Assembly: GCA_021791395.1 (NCBI GenBank)
Contig: JAJYWR010000013.1
Coordinates: forward strand, 21,384 to 85,383
Direction of reading: 5' to 3'
Length of the DNA: 64,000 bases
Source of the DNA: a bacterium
GTDB lineage: Bacteria > Patescibacteriota > Minisyncoccia > UBA6257 > GWB1-50-10
Each line of letters starts with the position of its first letter. Within the stretch, counting starts at the first letter, position 1. Below, piece by piece: positions 3,585 to 61,463 of this stretch. The position numbers and the translations under genes are program-made. The notes under the pieces were generated by a model. It searched no databases, had not been told where the DNA came from, and worked only from the letters and a program-made list of their open reading frames with translations.

Positions 3585-3655
3585 GTTATCCACAAATTTT
3601 AGGCCCCCGGGGGGCCTCAATTTTTGAAGGAGAGCGGGGGGGCCGAAATTGAGCG
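3585..3655. repeat. Dispersed repeat family B, locus A (DnaA-box-like head TTATCCACA plus unit CAATTTTTGAAGGAGAGCGGGGGGGCC)
   Basis: Sequence gttatccacaaattttaggcccccggggggcctcaatttttgaaggagagcgggggggccgaaattgagcggcgg. Related copies lie at 4901-5005, 13441-13550 and 33238-33315. Confidence 0.7.
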
Positions 3656-4539
3656 GCGGTTTTGTTTTTCTTGATTTTTGCAATATCATCCACCGTGATC
3701 CATGCGGACATCGCCCCGAATCCCGCCTTGTCGATCTCAAACGGCTCTGTCGCCCGCGGATCTTTCTTCCCAATCGCATAGGCGAGTTTCACGCGCACTT
3801 TTTCCGCATTGAATTTTTCGAGATAATCGACGGCAATTCGCCGTGCCATATAGGCACCACTCCGATCCACTTTCGTGTAATCCTTCCCCGAAAATGATCC
3901 GCCGCCCACGCCGATTTCCGGCCCATAGTTATCGATCACAATCTTCCTCCCCGAGAGACCTGAGTCGGCTTCGAATCCGCCGACCGGCCATTCCCCCGCC
4001 GGATTTATCAGATACTCGTCCGCCCGGATGATTTCCCGAACCAACTTTTCAAGTTCCAGCGTCTTCGTATTTTGGAAACTTGCGACCACGACTTTCGCTT
4101 TGCCGTCTTCGACCGTGACCTGCGTCTTGCCGTCGTACGGGTATTTCTCGTATATCTTCCGGCACAGGTCGCGCGCAAGCTCGTATTCCAAGGGCATGTA
4201 GCTCTTCGTCTCCCGCGTCGCATACCCCATCATAATCCCCTGATCCCCCGCACCGCCGGCGTCGACGCCTCGGCCGATATACCGGCTCTGCTTCGCGACG
4301 AACGTCCGAACTTCGTAGTTCTGTCCGACGAGACCCTTCACGATATTCACGATATCGACATCCGCATTGCTTGTCACTTCTCCCGAAATGGTTATTTGCC
4401 CATGGCCGCCGACCGCTTCCAGGGCGACGCGGCTCGCGGGATCCTTCTTCACGTACTCATCGAGAAGCGTGTCGACCAAAACGTCGCACATCTTGTCCGG
4501 ATGCTTCGGCGACACGAACTCGGCTGTTTTAATATTCAT
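3586..4539 (-). CDS. metK: S-adenosylmethionine synthetase (short form)
   Basis: Motifs SPKHPDKMCD, GAGDQGIMMGYA and GGGSFSGKDYTKVDRSGAYMAR. Start set at MNIKTAEF (ATG 4539), downstream of the riboswitch. The last ~20 codons run into a dispersed repeat. Confidence 0.85.
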   Translation of the reverse strand: MNIKTAEFVSPKHPDKMCDVLVDTLLDEYVKKDPASRVALEAVGGHGQITISGEVTSNADVDIVNIVKGLVGQNYEVRTFVAKQSRYIGRGVDAGGAGDQGIMMGYATRETKSYMPLEYELARDLCRKIYEKYPYDGKTQVTVEDGKAKVVVASFQNTKTLELEKLVREIIRADEYLINPAGEWPVGGFEADSGLSGRKIVIDNYGPEIGVGGGSFSGKDYTKVDRSGAYMARRIAVDYLEKFNAEKVRVKLAYAIGKKDPRATEPFEIDKAGFGAMSAWITVDDIAKIKKNKTAAQFRPPRSPSKIEAPRGPKICG

Positions 4540-4565
4540 CGTTTTATTTGTTTTTAATGGCAACC

Positions 4566-4712
4566 GAAAAAGAAAATACTCTTCCCACAAAGAAGAGTCA
4601 GCAATTCGACCTTTATCTTCCCCCTTGCGGGCTGGATGTGGCACTTGCTCCTTTCGGATGAGTTGCCGGACGGATCACAGAGCCAGAACTCTCCCCGTCG
4701 CTCTCGATAAAC
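4566..4712 (-). promoter_or_regulatory. SAM-I (S-box) riboswitch with intrinsic terminator, leader of metK
   Basis: Minus-strand RNA reads UUUAUCGAGAG..GGGGAGAG..CUGGCUCUGUGA..GGCAAC...GUGCCACAUCCAGCCCGCAAGGGGGGAAGAUAAA. It shows P1 UUUAUC/GAUAAA and the GGCAAC and GUGC.A.AUCCAGC boxes. Hairpin ACUCUUC-UUUGUGG-GAAGAGU plus AUUUUCUUUUU follows (4566-4598). Confidence 0.8.
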
Positions 4713-4900
4713 TTATTCGGTTGTGTTTTTATGCTATCATTTTTTCCCTCTTTTTGAAAGCCCATACACTTTGCCTCTAAGTGTGCGGGCAAGCCACCAC
4801 TTTTTGAAAAACGGCATGGTTAAGGTTGAGAGCATGAGGGAAGAAGAAAGATCATCCATGATATTCCTCAAATTCTACCGCTTCCCGCCGGGCTTGAAAA

Positions 4901-5919: not shown

Positions 5920-6026
5920 GTTGCCTCCGAATTTTATGGAAAATATAAAAAAAATAGAATTACTGTCGCCTATTTTGACATATTTCCCATGTTTATGTCA
6001 ATGGCCTCTGAGGGCGAAAGCGCTAA

Positions 6027-6056
6027 CCTCCGGGGCGCCTCCGGGTGCCCCGGAGG
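6027..6056. repeat. Palindromic hairpin family A copy
   Basis: Identical 30-mer, ~10 nt downstream of the stop of the permease gene (6067). Confidence 0.8.
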
Positions 6057-6066
6057 AATCAGCTCG

Positions 6067-7029
6067 CTATTTCAAAATGGCGTTGAAGAGGTAGCCGGTC
6101 AGGATGATGCCGACTCCGACGACGGAAGCAAAGATGACGATGAGGCGCGTCTTCATCACCTTCTTCAGGATCATGAATTCCGGAAGCGACAAGGCGGTCA
6201 CCGACATCATGAACGCCAAAGTCGTTCCCATCGCGACTCCCTTCTCCGTCAGGGCCGAGACGAGCGGAATCACGCCCGCAGCATTCGAATAGAGCGGGAT
6301 GCCGATCAAGACGGCCAAGGGCACCGCGTACCACTTGTCGGGGCCGGCGTACCGGGCAAGAAAATCCATCGGAATGTAGCCGTGGATCCAGGCGCCGACG
6401 CCGACGCCGATCAGAATATACAGCCACACTCTTTTTATAATATCTACCGTATATCCCCCGGCATATTGCATCCTGTCCCGCCACGCCATTTTCGCGCCTT
6501 CATACGCAGCCGAAAGCTTATGTTCGAAGACGAACGGCTCCACGAGTCTTTCGGGTTTCAGCTTGCCGATGACGATGCCGGATACGACGGCAATCACGAG
6601 TCCGCTCCCGATGTAGATCGCCGCGATCTGCCAGCCGAAAAGACCCACAAGCATCACGAGCGCGACTTCGTTTATCATCGGCGAGGCGACGAGGAACGAG
6701 AATGTGACGCCCAAGGGGACCCCGGCTTCCACGAACCCGAGGAAGAGTGGGATCGCCGAGCAGGAGCAGAAGGGCGTCACGATGCCGAGGAGTGAAGCGA
6801 GGATATTGCCGAGATACGCCCGCTTGCGGGAAAGAATCATTCGAACCTTTTCCGCAGGAAGAAAGGAACGGATGGTGGAAACCGCGAAAATGATGACGGC
6901 GAGGAGGATGAAGATCTTCGTCGTGTCGAAAACGAAAAAATCGATGGCACTCCCGAGGAGTGACTGCGGCGCGATGCGGAAGAGGCCGTAGGTCAGCCAA
7001 TCGGCTAAAAGCTGGAGCGGAGCGAACAT
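6067..7029 (-). CDS. Permease (ArsP/DUF318-like predicted permease family)
   Basis: 320 aa polytopic membrane protein with a TPFCSCSAIP motif. Sits in an operon with a thioredoxin-like protein and ArsR, the usual context for this family. Confidence 0.7.
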   Translation of the reverse strand: MFAPLQLLADWLTYGLFRIAPQSLLGSAIDFFVFDTTKIFILLAVIIFAVSTIRSFLPAEKVRMILSRKRAYLGNILASLLGIVTPFCSCSAIPLFLGFVEAGVPLGVTFSFLVASPMINEVALVMLVGLFGWQIAAIYIGSGLVIAVVSGIVIGKLKPERLVEPFVFEHKLSAAYEGAKMAWRDRMQYAGGYTVDIIKRVWLYILIGVGVGAWIHGYIPMDFLARYAGPDKWYAVPLAVLIGIPLYSNAAGVIPLVSALTEKGVAMGTTLAFMMSVTALSLPEFMILKKVMKTRLIVIFASVVGVGIILTGYLFNAILK

Positions 7030-30926: not shown

Positions 30927-31826
30927 TCACCACACCGCAAACACGCCGACGTTTCCATCGGTTGTTTTTTTCACTTTAATAATCCCCTTCTCGTCGGTAC
31001 GGAAAACTCGTGCGCCGACCGTGCTCAGAGCAGATACTACCTCCCTCGACGGATGTCCGTAAGAATTTTTTCCGACTTCAATCACTGCAATAGTCGGAGA
31101 AAGTGTGTTGAAAAATTCCTCCGACAACGACCCCTTCGAGCCGTGATGGGCGACTTTCAAAACATCTACGCGGCCGATGCGTCCGGCAAGCATTTCTTCA
31201 ATATTCGAACTTATATCACTCATAAAAGCCGATCTCATGCTCTCCGCATCTACTTCAACAATAATCGCTGAATCATTTAAGTCACCTCCAGCGAGGAGTG
31301 CCTTGTCGGGAGAAACGACGTAAATTTTCGTTCCGCCGATCGTCATCCGGTCGCCTTCTGCGATGACGAGCAAAGCTATGTTTTCTTCGTCTAAAACTTT
31401 CTTGAAAGCCTTAAACGTTTCCTTTCCGCTCTCGATGCCATTCCACATAAACAAACCAACGCGGTAGTTCTTTACGACATCCATGAGTCCGCCGAAGTGA
31501 TCAACCTCGGCATGCGTCATGATGATGACGTCGAGAGAGCGGTCAAGAGGAGAAAAAATTGCGTCCAATGATTCCAGGACCGCGGAGTTTACCGGTCCTC
31601 CGTCGATCAAAATCTTCGCTCCACTTGCCGTTATAATAAGCTCACTATCCCCTTCGCCAACCGGCAAGAAGTATTCAGAGAATGAATCTTTCCCGCCAAT
31701 CACACTGAAAGAAAGGGTACCGACCACGACGATAACTAAAAGAAATGGGGAAAACTTTTTAAAATACCCGTCAATGAAGTCAACGACGATCCTTAATTCC
31801 CTTGCGCAATCCTTTTTCTTCTCCAT
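30927..31826 (-). CDS. comEC: ComEC C-terminal metallo-beta-lactamase domain protein (separate ORF with its own TM anchor)
   Basis: LPVGEGDSELIITASGAKILIDGGP, HAEVDHFGGL, VAHHGSKGS, YGHPSREV. Start taken at MEKKKD (31826). Confidence 0.7.
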   Translation of the reverse strand: MEKKKDCARELRIVVDFIDGYFKKFSPFLLVIVVVGTLSFSVIGGKDSFSEYFLPVGEGDSELIITASGAKILIDGGPVNSAVLESLDAIFSPLDRSLDVIIMTHAEVDHFGGLMDVVKNYRVGLFMWNGIESGKETFKAFKKVLDEENIALLVIAEGDRMTIGGTKIYVVSPDKALLAGGDLNDSAIIVEVDAESMRSAFMSDISSNIEEMLAGRIGRVDVLKVAHHGSKGSLSEEFFNTLSPTIAVIEVGKNSYGHPSREVVSALSTVGARVFRTDEKGIIKVKKTTDGNVGVFAVW

Positions 31827-33208
31827 GCAATAAGAGCAATGAGACAACCGTAATACACCGCCATAAGCCACGGATTGAACGGCAGTTGAACCATGGCATG
31901 CAATCCCCCAAAAAACTCGATGGTTGCTGTTTCGAATTTAAGGAACGGGAATGCAAGAAATGCCGCACCGAGAGCAACTGTCCGTGACACGAATCCGAGA
32001 AGCGCTTCCACAAATCCAAATGCCATGGTCACCGGTATGAAACCTAAAACGAGAACATTCGAAATGATGGACAGCGGTGAAATCGACCCGAAACTTGCTG
32101 CGATAATCGGAAGAACCGCCGCTTGAGCAGCGAATGTCGACGATATATTGCCTTTCCAATCCATGAAACTCTTGCTGAATGGAGGTCTTAAATACATGAT
32201 GCCGAGGAAAGCCGCGAATGATAGCTCGAAACCGACGTCAAAAACGAGCAGTTTCGGATTCACCGTCAGCATAAAAAAAGCGGCAAGCATGATAATATTC
32301 CTCGAATCGAAGAAGCGACCGCTCTCAGTCGCAAGGAGGACAAGAAATCCCATAATAGCTGCGCGAACGACCGATGCTTCGGCACCGGTCATGACAACGA
32401 AGAGGAAAATAGCGAATGAGGTAACGCCGAACGCCCATATCCGTGGCAACAAGAGCGAAAAAGCCGCCATGGCGCCGATCACGACGAGCGATATGTTGTA
32501 ACCCGAGAGCGCCACGAGATGCGTCGTGCCGCTCGACTGCATAGCAGCAGTGAAATCTTCCGAAAAACCGCCGCGGTAGCCGAGAAGGAGACCAGACATG
32601 AACGCACTTTCTTTTTCCGGCAGCGTTCTTTTGAAAGTATCAATCACTCGACCTCTCACCCCGAATAAGAAACGCTGCAATCCGCCGCCGGACGACACTG
32701 AAACGATTGCCGGAAAATTTGACGTCCCAATGATTCCTTCTTTCGCGAGATAATCAGCATATCCTCCCGCTGCCGGTCGCTCTATGACTCCTTTCAATGA
32801 TACCGCATCGCCAACCGCGACTGGCGAATACTTCCGGAGCATCACGAGCACTTTCCCGCCCCGGTCGAGTTTAACTATGGCTTTTGTCGATGAGTAGTCC
32901 GACGTTTCCATGTCGATAATCTTCCCGAGGAAAACATCATCCACGTCGTACCTGACAACCGACGACGCTCTCAAGTTCATATCAAACGCTTCTGCGTAAA
33001 ACGCTCCGCCAAAGACAAGGAGGGAAAGAAAAAGAAAAACCAGGTATTTCTTTTTTCGTTTCCAAAAGAAAAATGCAGCGGATACAACGGCCAAAAAAAC
33101 GGTAACGGCCAAAATGATCCAACTAACATGGATGCTCGCAAGGAAGATGCCAAAGATGAAAAACGCAATCCCGAAGAAGAGGATGTTGTACGCCGGCATT
33201 TCCCTCAT
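31793..33208 (-). CDS. comEC: ComEC/Rec2 N-terminal part (DUF4131/OB region plus competence membrane domain)
   Basis: Polytopic membrane protein with the typical ComEC layout (YLAKEGIIGT, TGAEASVVRAAIM). Ends before the MBL domain. Start taken at MREMPAYN (33208) because the upstream codons are repeat sequence. Confidence 0.7.
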   Translation of the reverse strand: MREMPAYNILFFGIAFFIFGIFLASIHVSWIILAVTVFLAVVSAAFFFWKRKKKYLVFLFLSLLVFGGAFYAEAFDMNLRASSVVRYDVDDVFLGKIIDMETSDYSSTKAIVKLDRGGKVLVMLRKYSPVAVGDAVSLKGVIERPAAGGYADYLAKEGIIGTSNFPAIVSVSSGGGLQRFLFGVRGRVIDTFKRTLPEKESAFMSGLLLGYRGGFSEDFTAAMQSSGTTHLVALSGYNISLVVIGAMAAFSLLLPRIWAFGVTSFAIFLFVVMTGAEASVVRAAIMGFLVLLATESGRFFDSRNIIMLAAFFMLTVNPKLLVFDVGFELSFAAFLGIMYLRPPFSKSFMDWKGNISSTFAAQAAVLPIIAASFGSISPLSIISNVLVLGFIPVTMAFGFVEALLGFVSRTVALGAAFLAFPFLKFETATIEFFGGLHAMVQLPFNPWLMAVYYGCLIALIAWRRKRIAQGN

Positions 33209-33237
33209 TATAGAGTCAAAAAACCGCTCTCTTTTCC

Positions 33238-33315
33238 AGTTTATCCCCCAAAACTTCCGCCCTCCGGTCTCCCTCAAAAATTCGAGGAGAGCGGGGGTCG
33301 GAAAATGGGGAAAAA
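33238..33315. repeat. Dispersed repeat family B, locus D
   Basis: Sequence gtttatcccccaaaacttccgccctccggtctccctcaaaaattcgaggagagcgggggtcggaaaatgggg. Confidence 0.65.
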
Positions 33316-34552: not shown

Positions 34553-35119
34553 ATGGCACGGTTATCCTACAACGAACTCAAAGTCGGCACAATCTTCGTG
34601 AAAGACGGGGCTCCCTACAAAGTTGTCGAGTCGGCGTTCATCCGGATGCAGCAGCGGAAACCCGTCATGCAGCTCAAGATCATCAATCTCGTGAGCGGCA
34701 AAACGCAGGAATACGCGGCTCATCAGAACGAGGAATTTACGGAAGCTGAGATCGAGGTGATGCCAGTTCAGTTCATCTATCAAAACCGCGGCGAATACTG
34801 GTTCAATGAAAAAGGGAATCCCAAGAATCGCTTCCAGCTCGACCAGAACATCCTCGGTCAAGCCGCGCAGTTCCTCAAATCAAACACAGAACTCACGGCC
34901 TATAAATTCGATGGGAAAATCATCAATATCGAATTGCCGATCAAAATGGATCTCAAGGTAACCGAAGCGCCGCCCGCCATTAAGGGCAATACCGCACAAG
35001 GCGGTACCAAAACGGTTCAGCTTGAAACCGGCGCAAAAGTGAACGTCCCCCTTTTCGTGGAAGAGGGCGACACGGTGAAAATCAACACGCAAACCGGGGA
35101 GTATATCGAACGGCTTTAA
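34553..35119 (+). CDS. efp: Elongation factor P
   Basis: 188 aa with three-domain EF-P-like sequence (LKVGTIFVKDGAPYKVVE..., C-terminal GDTVKINTQTGEYIERL). Confidence 0.85.
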   Translation: MARLSYNELKVGTIFVKDGAPYKVVESAFIRMQQRKPVMQLKIINLVSGKTQEYAAHQNEEFTEAEIEVMPVQFIYQNRGEYWFNEKGNPKNRFQLDQNILGQAAQFLKSNTELTAYKFDGKIINIELPIKMDLKVTEAPPAIKGNTAQGGTKTVQLETGAKVNVPLFVEEGDTVKINTQTGEYIERL

Positions 35120-36834
35120 GAACCAAGATTCTTTAAAGACTCCTTGAGTGACTCACGGAGCGATTCGACATCATGATTTCCCTCTTGGGGTCTCTTCGCC
35201 GATTTTGTTTCTTCCTTCAGGTCCGCGAGCGAAATGGTTCCGGTATCTGGGGGTGCTTCCGAGACTTCATCTCCACCCACGATGGTTTGTTTCCTGGTAT
35301 TCACGGGTTTCTGCTGCGGCGGCTGCCGTCTGAAATTCTTCAAAAAGGGGCGTCTTCGCTCGCCGTAACCGCTCCGGCCTGAATGGCTCGGCGCACTCGG
35401 CGCGATCGATCCTCCTTTTTGACTTTCTTGAAATTCTATTCCGAGCTTCGCAAGATCAGAAAATCTTGAGGCGGTTTCTCTTTCTTCATATCGATGTTCA
35501 AACTTCCGTTCCGCCGTCCCCTCTTCCTTCGGGGACATAACACCGCTCCATCGGTTGATTTCTTCCTCCACAGCCCACCGCGGCCGTGCGTAGATTCTCC
35601 GCGAGGTTTCGATGATTTTCTCGGCAATGGCCGGCGATGATTCCAAATTGAACGGCGGGAGCGTCGTCGCCGAAAACGGGCGGGATGTCACGCCGTCAAC
35701 TAGGAGCTTCAAATAAACGTGATAGTTCGGCAAATTTACGAGGTCTTGCGCCATAAACTCGGGCTCGAATTCCTTTTCCAAAAATTCCGCGTCGGCTGCT
35801 CCGACCCGGAACGAGACCATGGTGCCGACGTTGCCAAACACGGCATCGCGGACTTTCGTTGAAACATCCGTCACAAGCTGCCCCACATACTGATGTGCAA
35901 GAATCAAGTCGAGGCGGTATTTTCGCGCCTCGGACAAGATGTTTGCAAACGAGTCGGTGGCAAAATTCTGGAACTCGTCGACATAGAGATAAAAATCGAC
36001 GCGCTCGTCCTCTGGAATTCTTACACGCTCCATCGCGGCGAGTTGCATCTTCGTGATGAGCATAGACCCGAGGAGCGCTGAGTTATCTTCGCCGATTCTT
36101 CCTTTCGATACATTCACAAGGAAAATTTTCCCCGTGTTCATGATATTGAAGATGTCGATCGTGCTCTTTGATTGGCCAACGATGTTCCGAACGAGGGCCG
36201 TTGAAAGAAATTGGCCAACTTTGTTTTGAATCGGGGCGATGGCTTCGTTCCGGAACTGATCGCGCCACTCCTCAAACTCATTCACCCAAAACGCCTTGAC
36301 CACCGGATCTTTGATATTGTCGACGATTTTCTGCCGATATTCCTTGTCAACCAAAATACGCGTAATACCAAGGAGTGTCGTACCGGGCGTGTCGAGGAGC
36401 GCCAAGATTGCGTTATTTAAAATATATTCCATCCTCGCCGACCAAACATTTGACCAAATCTTCGTGAAGATACCCATAAGCCCCGAAGCAACCAAGTGTT
36501 TGTACTTCGGATCGGGTAATTCCAAAACGTTGAACCCGATGTGGGAATCGGCATCGGCCGGATTGAAATAAATGACATTGCTCAACCGCTCCTCGGGAAT
36601 TTTCTCGAGGAGTCCTTCGACGAGTTCGCCGTGGGGATCGACGACGCACAACCCTTCACCGTTTGCAATGTCCTGCACAATCAAGTTGTTGAGCATCGCC
36701 GTCTTTCCGGTACCAGTCTTTCCGATGACATACATGTGCTGGCGGCGATCGCGCCGCTTAATGCCAAAAAGCCGGTTCGAGTTCCGGAAATCAACCCTGC
36801 CGAAATAAGCCACATCTTTGTCGTTCTCGGCCAT
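35116..36834 (-). CDS. VirD4/TraD-like coupling-protein-family ATPase (T4SS DNA-binding-domain protein)
   Basis: Walker A GKTGTGKT, Walker B LYVDEFQNFAT, and ARKYRLDLILAHQY. Disordered basic C-terminus. Confidence 0.65.
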   Translation of the reverse strand: MAENDKDVAYFGRVDFRNSNRLFGIKRRDRRQHMYVIGKTGTGKTAMLNNLIVQDIANGEGLCVVDPHGELVEGLLEKIPEERLSNVIYFNPADADSHIGFNVLELPDPKYKHLVASGLMGIFTKIWSNVWSARMEYILNNAILALLDTPGTTLLGITRILVDKEYRQKIVDNIKDPVVKAFWVNEFEEWRDQFRNEAIAPIQNKVGQFLSTALVRNIVGQSKSTIDIFNIMNTGKIFLVNVSKGRIGEDNSALLGSMLITKMQLAAMERVRIPEDERVDFYLYVDEFQNFATDSFANILSEARKYRLDLILAHQYVGQLVTDVSTKVRDAVFGNVGTMVSFRVGAADAEFLEKEFEPEFMAQDLVNLPNYHVYLKLLVDGVTSRPFSATTLPPFNLESSPAIAEKIIETSRRIYARPRWAVEEEINRWSGVMSPKEEGTAERKFEHRYEERETASRFSDLAKLGIEFQESQKGGSIAPSAPSHSGRSGYGERRRPFLKNFRRQPPQQKPVNTRKQTIVGGDEVSEAPPDTGTISLADLKEETKSAKRPQEGNHDVESLRESLKESLKNLGS

Positions 36835-47389: not shown

Positions 47390-49131
47390 GCTATCTCACT
47401 ATTATAACAGCTCTCGCAGTACACGATTTCCGGGCGGTCGGGGGCATAGCTCGTTTCGAATTCGACGGTGCAATGCGAGTCGCCGTGAAAATGATTTTTC
47501 CGATCGCACATGCACGACCTATGCCACAGCTTCATGGGGTTCCTTTTCTTCAATCTTTCGTAATGCCGGCAGTTCGGACATAACCGAGGCAGAGGCAGAT
47601 TCATTCGCTTATAGAATTGAAGTTCCTGAGGAACAATTTTAAAGGCACCGACACACTGATGGAGACATCTCCCCGCGTGTTCGCACCCAACAACCTCGTT
47701 CACGATGGAATCGGTGACATCCTTGATGTTGTCCGGAAGATCTTCAGATCGAATGGTCACCTGGTATTCTTTAATATTCGGATCTTTCCACCGGTAACCC
47801 CGGCCCATCGTCTCGTCTTTCGTGAGCGGAAAATATTCTTGTGCGATGGTTTCATTGTAGGCGAAGGGGCTGAGTTCCGGCGGAAAGAATTCGCCGTAGC
47901 CGTACGTTCTTCCCCTTTGATCGACATAGGGCATGGTGTTCATCTGATCAATGATCCGTGGGGTTAGCTCCTCGTATTCTTCCTTCGAGTATTGCTTGTT
48001 CAGAATGCAGTATTGTTTGTTTCGGAGGCCGATGCAACCGAAGCAATCGTTGCAACCATGGCAATTATAACTATAGAGAACATTCTTCCCGCCCCAAACG
48101 ACAATGCCGTTGATCAACCGGGAAGCGTTCAACCCGGAATCCATTACCTCATAGCTTAAATCAACGTGTTCACCCGGTCCGTAGCTGTCATAAATGTCAC
48201 TCATGATGACGCCTCCATTCGTGGTATATTTGCAATCTTTCGCGTTATCAAAAAGGTCGAAGCAGGATTTGCAGTTTTTTACGTTCGTCAGATTGTCGCC
48301 CGTCGAATCCGGTGCGTTCACCAAAAAGGCGAACTTACGGATCGTTTGCAATTTGAGGTCGTTAAAGTCTCGTTTGATCCGCTTGAGCCCCTCATGGCTC
48401 CCCAGGTCGAATTCTTTCAGTTTTTGGACATATTCCTCGGGAGAGCATTGCTCGTTCCAAATGCAGTATGACTTGTTCCTTAAATTGGAGCACCCAAAGC
48501 AGTTCGAGCATCCCTTGCAGTTGTAGAGGAAGTACGAATCATTGCAGGAGTCAGAATTTTCTGAAAAGAACATACGGTATAATTTCATGCCGGTAATGAC
48601 CTCATAGCTCAGTTCGACATACGATGATGATAAAACATCGAGCGAATCTTTCGACATCCACGTCTTGTTCGCGTACATCACCCGCTCATTCATCCAAGCG
48701 CCGAATACCAGATAGCAATCCTTGGAACGTCCGCCATGGTTGGTGTATTCGCAGTTCTCGGACTGGGCATTGAAGATCGCCGGCATTGGCGCGCGTTCGA
48801 GGAGCGACCGGAATTGGCTGAAAAACGTTTCCTTGAAGTCGTAGGGGCGGCCGGAAGCGAGGGGGTCCCACTGGTCGCTCCACCAGACGTCGCGATCGTA
48901 CACGGTTACCTTACTATCCGGCGCGAAAATTGAAAGAACCCGCTTTCCCGTCAAATCACAGTTTCTCTGGTACAGCGAACGTTCATTCCGCCACGTCATT
49001 TTGCGCATTAAACGGCAATCAGGACACCAGGTCGGCGGCGGGACTTGGATGCGCTCATAGAAATCAAAATCCTCCGGTTCGATCGTGAATTCCTTCTTGC
49101 AGTTTTGACAGGTTTTTGTTTCTGAATTCAT
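47386..49131 (-). CDS. Cys-rich ZnR-FY family paralog 4
   Basis: Same architecture. The second ribbon is degenerate (CDLTGK...VYDRDVW). ATGA overlaps at both ends. Confidence 0.85.
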   Translation of the reverse strand: MNSETKTCQNCKKEFTIEPEDFDFYERIQVPPPTWCPDCRLMRKMTWRNERSLYQRNCDLTGKRVLSIFAPDSKVTVYDRDVWWSDQWDPLASGRPYDFKETFFSQFRSLLERAPMPAIFNAQSENCEYTNHGGRSKDCYLVFGAWMNERVMYANKTWMSKDSLDVLSSSYVELSYEVITGMKLYRMFFSENSDSCNDSYFLYNCKGCSNCFGCSNLRNKSYCIWNEQCSPEEYVQKLKEFDLGSHEGLKRIKRDFNDLKLQTIRKFAFLVNAPDSTGDNLTNVKNCKSCFDLFDNAKDCKYTTNGGVIMSDIYDSYGPGEHVDLSYEVMDSGLNASRLINGIVVWGGKNVLYSYNCHGCNDCFGCIGLRNKQYCILNKQYSKEEYEELTPRIIDQMNTMPYVDQRGRTYGYGEFFPPELSPFAYNETIAQEYFPLTKDETMGRGYRWKDPNIKEYQVTIRSEDLPDNIKDVTDSIVNEVVGCEHAGRCLHQCVGAFKIVPQELQFYKRMNLPLPRLCPNCRHYERLKKRNPMKLWHRSCMCDRKNHFHGDSHCTVEFETSYAPDRPEIVYCESCYNSEIA

Positions 49132-50836
49132 ACGACTTCCGCATTATAACATTGTTCGCAATAGACAATTTCCTTCCGATCCGGGGCATAGCTCGTCTCG
49201 AATTCGTTCGGGCACCGACCCGTGTGGCCATGGCTTATCGCCTGTGGTGAGCTTTTCAAACCACACATGCATTGCCGATGCCAGAGTTTAACGGGGTTTT
49301 TGAACTTCAAGCGATCCTTGAGCCGGCAGAAAAAACATTTCCGCGGGACTGGAATGCCGTTCCGTTTATAGAACGCGAGTTCTTCAGCGAGAATCTTATA
49401 ATTCCTGCCGCAGTCGGCGCAAGCGAGGATTTCATTCACGATCGAATTCGGAACATCCCCAATCGCATCAGGAATTTCTCGCATCGTTTCCTTCCCCGTC
49501 GTGAATTGGAGTTTATCCTGCCATCGATACCCCTTCGCGAGTGCCTCTTCTTTCGTCATAGGGTAGTTATCTTCCGCCAGTGTTTCGTTGTATCCGAAGG
49601 TCGAGAGCGATACCGGGAAGAATTCGCCCCATTCTCCCCCTTTTTCATTCCGTCCACGATCTCTTCCTTGAGCTTTTCATACGACTCCTTGGTGTACTGT
49701 TTGTTCAAGATGCAGTATTGGGCGCTTTTCAAACCGACACAGCCGAATAGTTCCTCCGACGATTGGCAGCTGTCTGAATACAGAACATTCCGATCTTTAT
49801 GGCAGTAAGACGTGAAATGCGTGCCATACGAATTGTCGGGATTGATACCTTCGTAGCAAAGCTCCTGCTCGCCCCCGCTCGCGCAGTCATAGCTGTCCTT
49901 AATCGTGTCACCGTTCTCAAAAAACTTAGAATCTTCAACTCTCACCGCATTCCAGCAATTCAAGGCGTTTTTTGAATTGACGAGGTAATTCCCCGCGCAG
50001 TTGACGCAATTCATGAAGTTGGCCGGTCTCCGCGGGAATTTCAGAATGAAATCGAAAAATTCCTTTTTGACCCGCTCCGACCTGCTCCAGGTATCGATCC
50101 GGTATTCACCGAGGATTTTCTCATATTCTTCCTTTGTATACTGCTGATTTTTCACGCAGTACTTTTTGTGACGGAGGCCGATCGACATGAAACAATCGCT
50201 GCAATCCCGGCAATCGTAACAGAAAGCACAGTTGATGAGCGATTCTGAGTTAAAAACGAATCGGCAGGAGTTGCTCTCTCCTACATAAATCGATTCATAG
50301 ATATTCCGGGCATTTGAGAAAACCGTCATTACATCCACCATATCCTTCGCGTTCACCATATGGTAGCAATACATGCAATTTTCCACTTTCCACGAGTTCA
50401 TGGTGAGGTAACAGTTTTTGCCGAGAGCGAAGTAGTTCGTATATTCGCATCCGACGCTTGCGATATTGTTGTCGTTCAAAATCGCGAGAGCCGGTACGAT
50501 ATCGAGAAGTTCTCGATATTGCTCGAAGAAAGACCGTGATAGATCGTAATCACGACCGTATTTCTTCGGATCCCAGCCGTCGCCCCACCAGCATTTGTTG
50601 CAATAGATCGGGACAGGCTTCTCCGGCGAGTAGATGGAGATAATTTTCCGGCTGCAGAGCTCGCACTCACGATTGTAGAAGTTGTAATCATTCCGCCAGG
50701 CGAGCCGACGTTGCCTCCGGCAGTCGGGACACAAAATCGGCGCTGGCACCCCGATACGGTTATAGAACAAAGAGTCGTCCCCCTCGACCGTGAAATCTGA
50801 TTTACAATTTACGCATTTTTTTATTTCCTTCTTCAT
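49128..50836 (-). pseudogene. Cys-rich ZnR-FY family paralog 5, interrupted by a -1 frame change (ORFs 49556-50836 and 49128-49559)
   Basis: The N-terminal 426-aa ORF loses family similarity after ...IVDGMKK. The -1 frame continues GGEWGEFFPVSLSTFGYNETLAEDNYPMTKEEALAKGYRW... to the normal family C-terminus. The switch point is the run AAAAAGGGGG (49636-49645). Confidence 0.75.
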
Positions 50837-52692: not shown

Positions 52693-53001
52693 TTGAAATT
52701 ATCATTTCAAGAGAAGGTTTACGCTATCACCAAGCGGATCCCGCGGGGCAAGGTAGCGACCTACGGACAAATCGCGCGGCTTGCCGGTAAACCCCGGGCG
52801 GCCCGGATGGTAGGTTTTTTCATGAAAACTAACCCGCACGCGCCGATTGTCCCCTGCCACCGCGTGGTTGCAGCAAACGGGGCTTTGACTGGATATTCAG
52901 TCAAGGGCGGCCTGGAGGCTAAGAGGAAAATGCTTCTCCGCGAAGACGTAAAATTCCGCGGCGACCGCGCCGATCTCAAGGTTTCCCAGTGGCAAGCATA
53001 G
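52693..53001 (+). CDS. MGMT-family protein (single DNA-binding/active-site domain, 102 aa)
   Basis: IPRGKVATYGQIA...PCHRVV...LTGY (PCHR active-site motif). TTG start. Confidence 0.75.
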   Translation: MKLSFQEKVYAITKRIPRGKVATYGQIARLAGKPRAARMVGFFMKTNPHAPIVPCHRVVAANGALTGYSVKGGLEAKRKMLLREDVKFRGDRADLKVSQWQA

Positions 53002-57755: not shown

Positions 57756-58190
57756 TTATATGGGGCCGCCGACGATGATGACGCCCCCAAGGATTGGATC
57801 TTCCTTTTCCTCGGACTTGAAGGAAATGATCTTCCAGTCCGGTCGGAGGTTCAAGTCGTCATATTCAGCATCGCCGAGTTCAGCATGCACCGACGACCAA
57901 AACACCTTGCGAAGGATATCCGCCTTGTCCATGAGAGCGCGGTAATCGCGAAAGAATCTTTCGCACTCCTTGCCATCACCATCGAAGAGAAATTGAGCAT
58001 GCTTCTCCTCATGATCCTTCTTTATCCTGCTTGCCTCTTTGGCAAGTTTGGCATGGAGAGAATAAATCCGTTTCAGGTCGTCACTGACTCCCATAATTAC
58101 GTGACCTTCCGGGTACGGACCTTCCGCTACCGGTTTTACGATCGTGGTACTACTAATCTCCTTTTGGAGATCTTCGAGAAATGTGGCCAT
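57756..58190 (-). CDS. Hypothetical protein (144 aa)
   Basis: GGAGG RBS upstream. Acidic, helical, no recognised domain. Confidence 0.5.
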   Translation of the reverse strand: MATFLEDLQKEISSTTIVKPVAEGPYPEGHVIMGVSDDLKRIYSLHAKLAKEASRIKKDHEEKHAQFLFDGDGKECERFFRDYRALMDKADILRKVFWSSVHAELGDAEYDDLNLRPDWKIISFKSEEKEDPILGGVIIVGGPI

Positions 58191-58257: not shown

Positions 58258-59436
58258 TTATTTGTCAATCTCTTTCCGCTTTTTGCCAAAGAAGCGGACA
58301 TAGAGGTAACTGTTTGCAATCATAACGACGCCATACGCAAAGAATGGGATCTCGAAAAGCGCCGCATCCATGAGATAGCCGGCGAGCCCCGTGCCGGCGG
58401 ACGATGCCGCAAGCCGCGCGACCTGGTTCACGCCGAGTGCGCGGCCCATTTCGTCGCCGTCCACCCGCCGCGTGAGCTCCGCCTGCTGAATCGGGAGCGC
58501 CATAATGCGGAGCGCCGGTCCCACGACATAAACGAAAATAGCAAACGGCAGAAAGCGGATAATCGGGAAGGCGACGAAGAGAATTGTTCCAATCCCCCGG
58601 GTCCAAACCATACTCTTCACGAACCCGAGGTATTTTTCGAGGAACGGCGCGGCAAGGAGCGCAACCGATCCCACAATGCCGGAAATGAAAGCATATTCCG
58701 CCATTTGTGATTTTGGAATATTATAAATCAAAAGAAAAAACGGAATGAGGAACGGCACAATGAGACCCTGCGAAAATCCGTTCAAAATGCCGGTCAGGGT
58801 GAACTTACCGATGGTCGCTTTCGTTTTCAGGACGCGGAGTTTCCCTTTTGCTTCCCTGACTTCGATGAAAGGAAGCGCGATGACGCCCGCAGCAGCAATC
58901 ACGGTCGCAACAAGGAAGATTTCCTGAACCGTGAAAACTTTCGCAAGAAGTGCTCCCAGTGCCGCCGTAAAGCCGGAAAGAAACGTGAGAAAGGAGAAGT
59001 ATTTCGTCCGCTTCTCGCTCGGCGTGAGTTCCGTGATAATGGTGTTTTGAATCGGTTGAACCGCACCGCCGATACCGCCGCCGACCAAGGACCCCGTTGC
59101 GGAATAGCCGCCGACCATCGCCGCAATAAAGACCACCCACAAACTCGACGAAAAATACACCAAGGCGGAGCTCACCGGCAAGAGCGCGCTTGCGATGAAA
59201 AGCGTTCCCCGCTTCCCCCAAACGTCGGTCGTAATACCAGCGAGAAAACTCAACACTGCCGTCGCAATTGTCGCCGCGACGTAGATAAGGCCGATCATTC
59301 CGGCGGTTTGATGAAGATCGACGAGAATGTAATACGGGAACGCAATATTGATCATCCCGGCCGCAATGCTCCGGGTGATCCTTGAAACTATAATGAGATA
59401 AATACCTTTTTTCTTGGGTTTTAGTTCAGTTTCCAC
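58258..59436 (-). CDS. MFS transporter
   Basis: About 12 TM segments with the MFS loop motif TDVWGKRGT. Start moved to the in-frame GTG at 59436, 10 nt after TGGTATAAT. The track extension to 59655 is antisense to a better-supported HTH gene. Confidence 0.7.
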   Translation of the reverse strand: METELKPKKKGIYLIIVSRITRSIAAGMINIAFPYYILVDLHQTAGMIGLIYVAATIATAVLSFLAGITTDVWGKRGTLFIASALLPVSSALVYFSSSLWVVFIAAMVGGYSATGSLVGGGIGGAVQPIQNTIITELTPSEKRTKYFSFLTFLSGFTAALGALLAKVFTVQEIFLVATVIAAAGVIALPFIEVREAKGKLRVLKTKATIGKFTLTGILNGFSQGLIVPFLIPFFLLIYNIPKSQMAEYAFISGIVGSVALLAAPFLEKYLGFVKSMVWTRGIGTILFVAFPIIRFLPFAIFVYVVGPALRIMALPIQQAELTRRVDGDEMGRALGVNQVARLAASSAGTGLAGYLMDAALFEIPFFAYGVVMIANSYLYVRFFGKKRKEIDK

Positions 59437-59487
59437 AGTACGAACGATTATACCATACTGAATGAAGCCGGGTGTATAATAAGAGTG

Positions 59488-59703
59488 ATGAAAAGCCGCG
59501 AGAATGCCATATACGATACCACGAAGCTTGCCAAATTCTTCGGCGTAACCGAACGGACCGTCCTTGAGTGGTGCAGGAAAGGGAAACTTCCGGCTTTTAA
59601 GATCGGCAAACAATGGAGGGTACGAGTTATCGATCTCCAAAAAATGATCAATCACAAAGTACTAACTCGCCGAGATTCGCGCTATACCACTTCGCTCTTA
59701 TAG
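59488..59703 (+). CDS. Excisionase-family (HTH_17/MerR-like) small DNA-binding protein
   Basis: YDTTKLAKFFGVTERTVLEWCRKGKLPAFKIGKQWRVRVIDLQKMI matches the excisionase-type HTH pattern (G.s..Tv..w...GklPa.kiG..wr....dl). TATAAT (59475-59480) lies 7 nt before the ATG. Confidence 0.7.
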   Translation: MKSRENAIYDTTKLAKFFGVTERTVLEWCRKGKLPAFKIGKQWRVRVIDLQKMINHKVLTRRDSRYTTSLL

Positions 59704-61463
59704 CACTCCTCGCAGTACACGATCTCCGGACGGTCGGGGGCGTAGGTCGTTTCGAATTCGTTCGGACATTTCCCTTCTCCGTGGGAATGCTTGCTCGTAT
59801 TTTGATAGATACCGTTTTCAGATTTCGCGCCGGCACATTGGCATGTGCGGTGCCAGAGCCTCAAGGGGTTCCGCTGTTTAATCCTCTCATAATGCCTGCA
59901 ATTGGAACAGAGATGCGGAGGCGGCAGATCGAACTTGCGATAGAATGCAAGTTCTGCGGACGTAATTTTGAACGCTGTTGCACACTGATCGTTGCATTTA
60001 CCCTTATGCTCACAACCAATGGTTTGCTCAAGAATGTCGTCTTTTACTTCCCCGATCGTATCGGGAAGATCGTGAGCCTCCATCGTTATACCGTATTGCT
60101 TCTCAACTGATTCATGCCACCGGTATCCCCTTTCAAGGGCTTCTTCTCTGCTTAAGGGATGGAGTTCCGCTGCAACCGTCTCGTTGTATGAGAAAGGAGA
60201 AATCTCTGCGGGGAAGAATTCGCCGTAGCCATGCCTTCTCCCTCCGCGATCAACATACGGCATCTCGTCCATATGGCTCTCGATCTTCGGCACGAGTGCT
60301 TCGTATTCTTCCTTGGTATATTGCTTATTGAAAATGCAATACTGTTTGTTCCGAAGGCCGACGCATCCGAAAAGATCGGATGAATCGTGGCAGTTGTACG
60401 AATACGAAACATCGCGGCACGAACGGACGAAACGGGAATACCAAATGCCGTTTCCGGGGTAGACGGTCGATGAATCGACGACGCGTTCCGAATTAAGCCC
60501 CGAGTGGTCGCAATCGAAGCAATCTTTCACCTTCGAATAGATGAGCCAAAGATAGCCGGAATCCTCCGCTCCCTCGAACACTTCGAACGATCGTCGGCAA
60601 TTCTTGGCACCTTCGAGGTTGTCTCCGCTCGAATTCACACTCCGGAGGACGCGGGCGAAACGCCGGGGATATTCAAGGGACGCCAAGCGGTATTTTTCTT
60701 TTGCTTCGGAAACCGACCGATACCCTTTCGGCATCAGTTCTTTTATTTTCTTTTCATACCCCTCTTTTGTATACTGAACGTTCTCAATGCAGTACGACTT
60801 GTTCGCTAAATTCGTGCACCCGAAGCAATCATGACAGTTCTTGCAGTTGAAGAGGAAGGCGCCGTCGTAGCACCCTTCCGAGTAGCGGCTCCAGAAAAGC
60901 CGGCTCGAGGAAATGCAATCCACTGTTTCATAATTGAATTCCCCCTTCGATACCCAGTAGCAATCCATGCACTCTTTACTGTTGAAGATGAATGCCGAAT
61001 AGAGCGTATTCTCGTTGAAATCGCCGCCGATCACGAGATAACAGTCCTTATTCCCTTCCGTAATGCTGCAATACTCGCTCCGCACGCCCCGCTGGTTCAT
61101 CAGCGCCACGTCCGGCACTTCTTTCCATAATTCGCGAAGCTGCTCGAAAAACGGTTTCGAAAAATTGTAGTCACGCCCGTACACCATCGGATCCCATCCA
61201 TCGCTCCACCAGAATTCTTGATCGTACACCCGCTGGGGATTTTCCGGCGAAAAAAGGCAAAGCATGGCTTCTCCGTGTCCCGGCGCATCGCATTTTCGCC
61301 AATAGAGGATCCGCTCGTTGCGGTATGTCATCCGGCGCAGAAGCCGGCACTCAGGACAGAAGGTCGGCGGCGGAACCTGCATCTTCTCGTAGAACGCGAA
61401 ATCGTCCGACTCAATCGTGAACTCCTTTTTGCAGTTTTGGCAGATTCTTTTTTCTTGATTCAT
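59682..61463 (-). CDS. Cys-rich ZnR-FY family paralog 9
   Basis: MNQEKRICQNCKKEFTIESDDFAFYEKMQVPPPTFCPECR ... CSNCRHYERIKQRNPLRLWHRTCQC ... VYCEECYKSEVV. The track extension to 61511 is hairpin sequence. Confidence 0.85.
   Translation of the reverse strand: MNQEKRICQNCKKEFTIESDDFAFYEKMQVPPPTFCPECRLLRRMTYRNERILYWRKCDAPGHGEAMLCLFSPENPQRVYDQEFWWSDGWDPMVYGRDYNFSKPFFEQLRELWKEVPDVALMNQRGVRSEYCSITEGNKDCYLVIGGDFNENTLYSAFIFNSKECMDCYWVSKGEFNYETVDCISSSRLFWSRYSEGCYDGAFLFNCKNCHDCFGCTNLANKSYCIENVQYTKEGYEKKIKELMPKGYRSVSEAKEKYRLASLEYPRRFARVLRSVNSSGDNLEGAKNCRRSFEVFEGAEDSGYLWLIYSKVKDCFDCDHSGLNSERVVDSSTVYPGNGIWYSRFVRSCRDVSYSYNCHDSSDLFGCVGLRNKQYCIFNKQYTKEEYEALVPKIESHMDEMPYVDRGGRRHGYGEFFPAEISPFSYNETVAAELHPLSREEALERGYRWHESVEKQYGITMEAHDLPDTIGEVKDDILEQTIGCEHKGKCNDQCATAFKITSAELAFYRKFDLPPPHLCSNCRHYERIKQRNPLRLWHRTCQCAGAKSENGIYQNTSKHSHGEGKCPNEFETTYAPDRPEIVYCEECYKSEVV

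Follow-up and report, generated by a model that had tools for sequence, protein, structure and literature searches.

The locus described here raises the question of which of two overlapping reading frames is a gene, and what the smaller one encodes. We analyzed a stretch of 64,000 nucleotides (the window) from contig JAJYWR010000013.1 of assembly GCA_021791395.1, which belongs to a member of the Patescibacteriota, a phylum of the candidate phyla radiation (CPR). On the minus strand, an open reading frame (ORF) at 58258-59655 is open throughout and would encode a 465-aa transporter of the major facilitator superfamily (MFS). On the plus strand, and largely opposite the 5' part of this frame, lies an ORF at 59488-59703 (stop codon included) for a 71-aa protein with a helix-turn-helix (HTH) domain. 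Both are embedded in an array of genes for Cys-rich paralogous proteins. We find that the small ORF is a gene for a winged-helix DNA-binding protein of the HTH_17 class, as indicated by its profile match, its relatives, its pattern of substitutions and its predicted structure, and that the MFS ORF has been extended over it.

The HTH ORF runs from an ATG at 59488 to a TAG at 59701-59703 and encodes MKSRENAIYDTTKLAKFFGVTERTVLEWCRKGKLPAFKIGKQWRVRVIDLQKMINHKVLTRRDSRYTTSLL. An in-frame GTG three bases 5' of the ATG (59485) would give a protein of 72 aa. This GTG is not kept as a possible start among the relatives and the ATG is the conserved start; in one of them (L018) a stop precedes the codon before the ATG, leaving the ATG as the only usable start. 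The protein scores 53.2 bits against the Pfam family HTH_17 (PF12728; cutoff 27, E 3.5e-14) and 31.8 bits against the TIGR01764 ‘excise’ domain (cutoff 28.8), and it matches HTH DNA-binding and excisionase families of PHROG at E values of 2e-9 to 4e-3. Seventy-four homologues were found in the database with E values down to 1e-36, nearly all of them 63-103 aa long and one of 51 aa; homologues of about 70 aa occur in more than 50 species of Patescibacteria. Since there are 74 homologues and the HTH frame is under purifying selection, as described below, the match lies well outside what chance would give.

Public gene calls for the identical contig (ENA ERZ27237183, k141_1287453) list the 465-aa MFS protein and lack the HTH gene. 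Exact-sequence look-ups of the 71-aa and 72-aa forms of the HTH protein and of a 392-aa form of the transporter returned no record; only the 465-aa MFS protein is on record. The annotation of the closest sequenced relative, GCA_021825465.1 (L003/L015), has an MFS protein (377 aa), an HTH_17 protein of 72 aa with 93% identity to ours, and a paralog overlapping the latter by 22 nt. The same overlap is present in the window, where the 3' ends of the HTH gene and of a Cys-rich paralog gene (59682-61463, minus strand) converge at 59682-59703. It is also found in L016, and in L017 it is replaced by a gap of 119 nt.

The two overlapping frames evolve very differently. Ratios of nonsynonymous to synonymous substitution rates (dN/dS) were calculated for each frame over the 168-nt overlap, comparing the window with four related genomes (L015, L016, L017 and L018), and ranged from 0.02 to 0.14 in the HTH frame versus 0.6 to 4.5 in the frame of the MFS extension. 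An indel in the spacer between the two genes points the same way. L015, L016 and L017 read GGTGGTATAAT where the window reads GGTGTATAAT, with one G fewer (59465-59475). The extra base puts the antisense open frame of these three relatives out of phase with the MFS gene, and the ‘extension’ either differs in its amino acids or stops after 25 codons. Codon-usage log-odds favor the HTH frame over the extension frame (0.18 versus 0.08 bits per codon), which is the right direction and weak evidence when taken alone.

A start at the GTG at 59436 gives a transporter of 392 aa (58258-59436, minus strand) with a short positively charged N-terminus directly before the first transmembrane helix. This codon is conserved as a start, being GTG in the window and in L015-L017 and ATG in L018 (MDTELRPKRRGIYLIV...; MDTELRPKRRG...). 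The MFS_1 profile matches with 100.5 bits at residues 92-421 of the 465-aa ORF, which are residues 19-348 of the 392-aa form, and the match begins at profile position 5; in the shorter form it begins near the N-terminus, as an MFS_1 match over 12 transmembrane helices should. The remaining 73 codons (59437-59655, minus strand) have no Pfam match and correspond to the open antisense frame of the HTH gene. A deletion of 1 nt in the 51-bp spacer of the window joined the MFS frame to this antisense frame, and gene callers were thereby misled. Records of the 465-aa product exist for four assemblies, and the deletion is thus more likely a genuine variant than an error of assembly.

On the strength of the frame-specific dN/dS, the spacer indel, the conserved start codon and the HTH homologues, all of them comparisons of sequence, the HTH gene is almost certainly real, the MFS gene spans 58258-59436, and the minus strand at 59437-59655 is noncoding. 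One could argue instead for the 465-aa ORF, with the HTH ORF as an antisense frame open by chance, or for translation of both as overlapping genes, given that the long frame is open, that it was picked by a gene caller, and that its codon score of 0.078 is near the upper tail of the antisense-frame distribution (95th percentile 0.086). Yet the dN/dS of the extension (about 1 or higher, compared with 0.02-0.14 for the HTH frame), a 1-nt indel that breaks the frame in three relatives, the strong profile match and 74 homologues of the HTH ORF, and an MFS profile that starts after GTG 59436 leave this alternative with next to no probability.

The HTH and MFS genes are divergent and separated by a 51-bp spacer (59437-59487), in which two −10 boxes lie 19 bp apart. 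The box of the HTH gene, TATAAT at 59475-59480 on the plus strand, is found 7 nt before the ATG and is conserved as TGGTATAAT or TGATATAAT at 7-8 nt 5' of the ATG in L015-L018. It holds in L018 despite unrelated upstream DNA. The 1-nt deletion of the window also removes the TG of this extended −10 box, in comparison with L015-L017. For the MFS gene, an extended −10 box TGGTATAAT is present at 59447-59455 on the minus strand, 10 nt before GTG 59436; it is kept in L015 and L016 and found as TGATATAAT in L017. The sequence TATGGTATAATCGT precedes the MFS start by 10 nt in all five genomes, with an upstream frame reading YGIIV in all five, and accompanies the MFS gene in L018. Of 53 loci across the family, 21 show a −10-like hexamer whose end lies 4-12 nt upstream of the HTH start (16 of the 21 are TGn-extended), and such hexamers are several-fold rarer farther upstream.

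A scan with the sigma-70 consensus detected neither the HTH nor the MFS promoter and no −35 element. Both were missed because their −35 elements are poor, and support for the two promoters accordingly comes from conservation across the relatives and the family. Since a −10 box this close to a gene puts the transcription start at, or a few bases from, the start codon, the HTH and MFS mRNAs may well be leaderless or near-leaderless. We also considered whether near-leaderless genes are general in this genome, as TGNTATAAT occurs eight times in the window versus about one expected, and dropped this idea. Two of the sites, TGTTATAAT ‘extended −10’ boxes at 47401-47409 and 49143-49151 (minus strand), lie 11 nt before two paralog starts and are codons for Cys-Tyr-Asn in the conserved C-terminus of the preceding paralog, so that a promoter role is confounded with coding constraint and they are not independent evidence. 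Four other sites are at least 100 nt from any ORF start.

A first-pass annotation of this DNA had already proposed most of this arrangement from the sequence. The hidden HTH_17 gene was placed at exactly the right coordinates and its HTH_17 assignment is borne out by a profile score above the cutoff; it is indeed masked by a spurious 73-codon extension of the MFS ORF, in public calls as well, and the start of a transporter of about 392 aa at GTG 59436 agrees with the conserved codon and with a profile match that begins downstream of it. The 22-nt convergent overlap with the gene it had numbered paralog 9, the divergent orientation of the HTH and MFS genes, and a −10 box for each, at 59475-59480 and at 59447-59455, were also read correctly.

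What kind of protein does the small gene encode? In an alignment of 66 family members, residues F17, F18, G19, V20, T24, W28, G32, P35, F37, K38, G40, W43, D49, I54 and L70 are invariant. An AlphaFold2 model (pLDDT 82) has the topology beta-alpha-alpha-beta-beta-alpha, with strands at residues 8-10, 36-39 and 42-46, helices at 11-18, 22-31 and 47-66, and a tail of low confidence after that, and it contains the beta-alpha-alpha-beta-beta order of a winged-helix fold. Searches of Pfam and NCBIfam found only this excisionase/MerR-type DNA-binding domain, with no domain beyond the winged HTH. A profile search of 1.84 billion cluster representatives returned about ten single-domain, full-length representatives at E <1e-20, and many of the high scorers were multi-copy HTH_17 repeat proteins. 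The best fold matches in the PDB found by Foldseek are BldC (6AMA/6AMK), RacA, RppC, P2 Cox, RdfS and Pukovnik Xis, all at E >0.01, which is expected for a domain of 70 aa. BldC (6AMA) is also the best PDB match by sequence (E 0.004).

BldC of Streptomyces is a stand-alone, host-encoded MerR-like winged-helix protein of 68 aa (PMC5859096). The HTH protein resembles it in being host-encoded and of about 70 aa, in consisting of a MerR-like winged HTH without a coiled-coil dimerization or effector domain, and in fold, for which BldC is the best match (TM score 0.72-0.77 normalized to the target). It differs in sequence, with 24% identity and only a partial match at residues 13-37 to the BldC model of NCBIfam (NF033787; 18.5 bits versus a cutoff of 77), and in phylum; a long C-terminal helix, a conserved Leu-Phe tip and a holA operon context are not described for BldC. 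Members of the BldC family bind direct repeats cooperatively as head-to-tail multimers, and direct repeats were not found in the spacer between the HTH and MFS genes. MerR regulators share the topology of the N-terminal winged HTH and the placement of the gene divergent to a transporter gene with overlapping promoters. Unlike them, the 71-aa HTH protein lacks a long coiled-coil dimerization helix and a C-terminal effector-binding domain and has a single helix (47-66) after the wing. The N-terminal domain of RacA, which anchors the chromosome in B. subtilis (5I44), is a MerR-like winged HTH as well (TM score about 0.55) and serves an architectural, non-effector role in RacA. However, RacA has a long coiled coil and a DivIVA-binding region, and no sequence relationship was detected beyond the domain. 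MAD1 of the methylation-associated defense system (NF047737), another small HTH_17 protein, gives the best NCBIfam score (39.3 bits) and the sole PADLOC match (mad1, 23 bits), but 39.3 bits is far under the cutoff of 80. Five other genes scanned from the array and its neighbors matched none of the PADLOC models.

Genome context was surveyed by a scan that used two peptide patterns and yielded 74 loci, of which 53 belong to CPR genomes. Each genome contributed a single detected locus, a count from which divergent second copies would be missing. The homologous loci carry titles that include Minisyncoccia, Doudnabacteria, Kaiserbacteria, Taylorbacteria and Liptonbacteria. Outside the closest five genomes, many loci have a gene of about 330-357 aa directly downstream of the HTH gene and on the same strand, which encodes the delta subunit of DNA polymerase III, HolA (Pfam PF21694, PF06144). 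This is the case in L026, L032, L033, L035, L041, L045-L048, L050-L055, L057-L059 and L061-L066, where the HTH gene is at about 6001-6213. With a hidden Markov model (HMM) built from these proteins, holA was found within 6 kb of the HTH gene in 27 of the 53 CPR loci: directly downstream on the same strand in 23, with a small gene between in 1, and nearby on the other strand in 3. The distance from the HTH stop to the holA start is 18 nt or less in 17 of the 24 same-strand loci, including four TAATG overlaps. At the holA-linked loci the HolA proteins have a median identity of 33% (minimum 24%), compared with 63% for the HTH proteins. This points to an old linkage and to much stronger constraint on the small protein than on the essential HolA beside it. 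The same HMM found no holA in the window, and a fusion of the HTH protein with HolA, of the kind that would have supported a physical interaction, was absent from the 1.84 billion cluster representatives.

A Pfam census of neighboring genes covered both types of loci. Of 22 loci without holA (114 neighbor genes), 4 had a PIF1-type helicase, 4 a NUDIX protein and 3 an MGMT domain; of the 27 loci with holA (130 neighbor genes), 10 had an RNHCP-domain protein and 6 a ZIP transporter. The RNHCP-domain proteins (PF12647) are small and Cys-rich, and they are the divergent upstream neighbor in about 10 of the 27 holA-linked loci; many RNHCP/HTH promoters bear a CTTGAAATCAAG-like palindrome overlapping the −35 position.

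Taken together as a single statement, which we consider probable and hold with moderate confidence, the HTH protein belongs to a CPR-specific family and is a stand-alone DNA-binding protein of winged-helix fold, encoded by the host and acting, like BldC, as a regulatory or architectural factor; its gene was ancestrally the first of a holA operon and has here been relocated beside the MFS gene. The family is compact, very strongly conserved and apparently inherited with the chromosome in Patescibacteria. Its own −10 promoter would drive transcription in the direction opposite to the MFS gene, giving an mRNA with no leader or hardly any. About half of the species have the gene in the promoter-proximal position of a tight operon with holA, and in the lineage of the window it has probably moved from holA to the side of the MFS gene within the paralog array. 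The basic N-terminal winged HTH (residues 8-46) is predicted to bind DNA as BldC, RacA or Xis-type proteins do, with no effector domain involved. Self-association or contact with a partner could be mediated by the helix formed by residues 47-66 together with the flexible tail and its Leu-Phe or Leu-Leu end. The role, regulatory or architectural, is possibly linked to replication. The protein would then be neither a recombination directionality factor (RDF) nor a dedicated regulator of the array.

Several observations weigh against this explanation. No holA lies within reach of the HTH gene in the window and its four closest relatives, and the holA link comes from more distant orthologues with 45-59% identity. 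These holA-linked orthologues could be a functionally distinct subfamily, as their tails end in x-L-F compared with P-R-L-F/L in the stand-alone group. The HTH gene stays adjacent to the MFS gene in all five closest genomes, the window included, which is compatible with some local role. The two-pattern scan could have passed over second copies, the two promoters have poor −35 regions and escaped the consensus scan, and codon usage divides the two overlapping frames weakly.

The C-terminal tip of the family deserves attention of its own. Leu occupies position −2 in 103 of 111 members, and position −1 is Phe (85) or Leu (17), so that 102 of the 111 end in L-F or L-L. The tip is preceded by a variable, charged linker of about 12 residues with low pLDDT in the AlphaFold2 model. 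Short linear interaction motifs typically look like this, with a conserved dipeptide at the end of a variable stretch. Proteins that bind the bacterial beta clamp carry the consensus QL[SD]LF or QLxLxL, often at the extreme C-terminus. Some holA-linked family members end in NLSLF, NLPLF or NIPLF, which is near QL[SD]LF. Most members, however, share only the LF with the clamp-binding motif and lack its Gln and Leu at positions 1-2, and the protein of the window ends in TTSLL; its tail codons (59671-59700) overlap the C-terminal codons of the paralog on the opposite strand. The CPR HolA proteins encoded beside the HTH gene keep a (P/S/G)-S/G-L-F element, which aligns with the MSLF element of E. 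coli delta.

The LF tip and the holA operon together suggest that these proteins may contact the sliding clamp or the clamp loader, which we regard as a lead and not as a result. A more far-reaching version of this idea is that the family is an unrecognized replisome-associated factor of Patescibacteria. Ancestrally co-translated with delta, it would dock its Leu-Phe tip in the hydrophobic cleft of the beta clamp, the pocket used by the (P/S)SLF of delta, or onto the clamp loader, and would thereby hold replication or repair proteins at particular places on the DNA or regulate them there; the window would carry a copy relocated from holA. At present we would call this version improbable.

Another reading of the small gene starts from its domain. 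The first-pass annotation called the protein excisionase/MerR-like and considered it a possible relic of a mobile element that carried part of the array; the likeness stands at the level of domain and fold, and the functional role of an excisionase is not supported. HTH_17-class excisionases and RDFs, such as Tn916-type Xis, Pukovnik Xis (4J2N) and RdfS (8DGL), share with the HTH protein the Pfam and TIGR01764 domains, the winged helix and the small size, and often oligomerize on DNA (PMC11963761). That the HTH protein is an excisionase or RDF left behind by an integrated element is favored by the TIGR01764 score above its cutoff, by matches to PHROG excisionase families at E values of 1e-7 to 1e-3, and by the fold matches to RdfS, Pukovnik Xis and P2 Cox. 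It is also favored by two TraG/VirD4/TrwB-like coupling-ATPase genes that flank the array region, one at 35116-36834 (minus strand) and the other beyond 63801, just past the end of the window (L001 401-1855); no other conjugation or integration genes were seen. The context, however, is that of an ordinary chromosome. The window encodes an ABC ATPase, MetK, enolase, a 2-hydroxyacid dehydrogenase, a P-type ATPase, PPDK, an aminoacyl-tRNA synthetase, ComEC, MnmA, EF-P and an M17 aminopeptidase, followed by the Cys-rich array. No integrase, recombinase or transposase family was matched by the window genes scanned with Pfam, several of which, including the paralogs, have no Pfam match at all, and no recombinase or integrase family recurs among the 25 commonest families of 244 neighbor genes (114 and 130) at 49 homologous loci. 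Relatives of the HTH protein were not found in the 2.9 million viral contigs of IMG/VR. Unlike the known excisionases, the gene has no partner recombinase among the neighbors scanned, lies in no recognizable mobile element and has no relatives in these viral contigs. It appears vertically inherited, its synteny with holA is kept across lineages whose HolA proteins are 24-35% identical, and its sequence is conserved far more strongly than is usual for Xis proteins. The excisionase reading fails this test of context and is largely refuted; we consider it very improbable.

A role as a local transcription regulator is less remote, though still unlikely. The protein would bind the 51-bp spacer and control the divergent MFS gene and itself, in the manner of MerR or TetR regulator-transporter pairs, or it would act at the promoters of the Cys-rich array. 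The divergent arrangement with two −10 boxes 19 bp apart fits such a role, as does the adjacency of the HTH and MFS genes in the window and in L015, L016, L017 and L018; a divergent upstream neighbor is moreover found in 36 of 50 family loci. But the MFS gene and the paralogs adjoin the HTH gene only in the window and these four closest species, and neither an MFS homologue nor a paralog lies within 6 kb of it in the 49 other CPR loci, where the upstream neighbors vary (RNHCP, NUDIX, deacetylase and others). The HTH gene of L018 is found at the opposite end of the MFS gene, toward which it converges, and it diverges from a paralog; it still has its own promoter there, and for this reason the shared control region is not conserved. 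The 71-aa protein has no effector-binding domain, and no common operator-like motif was found upstream of the array genes. A repeat search of 59380-59720 gave only short matches consistent with chance, with no repeats, direct or other, in the spacer. The first-pass suggestion of a regulator of the array or of the MFS gene is therefore weakly supported: adjacency holds in the five closest genomes, but the divergent promoter region is lost in L018 and no such pairing is seen at the 49 other loci. Likewise, the small ORF accompanies the paralog family in L015-L018 and, within 6 kb, not in the other 49 CPR loci. As regards the paralog array, the HTH gene provides no evidence for its mobility or for a dedicated regulator of it.

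The array itself extends over 42085-63218 on the minus strand and consists of some ten paralogs that encode Cys-rich proteins of roughly 550-610 aa; it is also present in L015-L018. The paralogs share an N-terminal zinc-ribbon-like CQNCKKEFTIEPEDFxFYEK..PPTFCPECR and a C-terminal CEECY(N/K)SEVV, and had no match in Pfam, NCBIfam or PADLOC. Two shorter genes (49128-49559 and 49556-50836) look like pieces of one paralog and gave weak zf_Tbcl matches. The HTH protein had been described in the first pass as the only DNA-binding protein inside the array, which is contradicted by an MGMT/Ogt-type gene at about 52695-53001 on the plus strand (PF01035, E 5e-14) with a PCHR motif. Its public call, a 64-aa fragment, begins at an internal ATG, and the frame stays open farther upstream (..FQEKVYAITKRIPRGKVATYGQIARLAG..) and probably starts at a TTG. 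A 144-aa protein encoded downstream of the MFS gene (57756-58190, minus strand) has no family match; in the relatives it is likewise encoded beside the MFS gene, with 81-83% identity. At a locus that is otherwise unrelated (L009-L011 3629-4060), a homologue with 39% identity to it is encoded some 3 kb away from the HTH gene.

Two further gene models of the window, away from the array, show irregularities. A SAM riboswitch at 4610-4713 upstream of metK, a feature that marks the organism as bacterial, overlaps the start of the listed metK ORF (GTG 4644; ORF 3586-4713 region, minus strand), in which the match to the N-terminal domain begins at residue 38, and this ORF is probably over-extended at its 5' end too. 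The comEC gene (30927-33277, minus strand) is divided between two ORFs that overlap, one (31793-33277) with the Competence/DUF4131 part and the other (30927-31871) with the metallo-beta-lactamase part, and may represent a frameshift or a split gene.

The HTH locus is a clean, documented case in which a change of 1 nt fuses an open antisense frame to a neighboring gene. Automated annotation then loses a small conserved regulator, and the transporter acquires 73 false residues at its N-terminus; this error is already present in the public calls for the contig. The gene itself is an ordinary annotation correction; the lead is the pattern at the level of the family, namely extreme conservation, leaderless-type promoters, a holA operon and a terminal Leu-Phe tip, of which we found no description in the searchable literature. 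Small proteins of the CPR are almost entirely uncharacterized. This family is twice as conserved as the essential HolA with which it is co-transcribed, ends in a short linear motif, and tends to sit near genes of DNA metabolism (holA, PIF1-type helicase, MGMT and NUDIX). Because of its conservation, terminal motif and neighbors, it can reasonably be put forward as a candidate core factor of DNA transactions in organisms whose replisomes are minimal.

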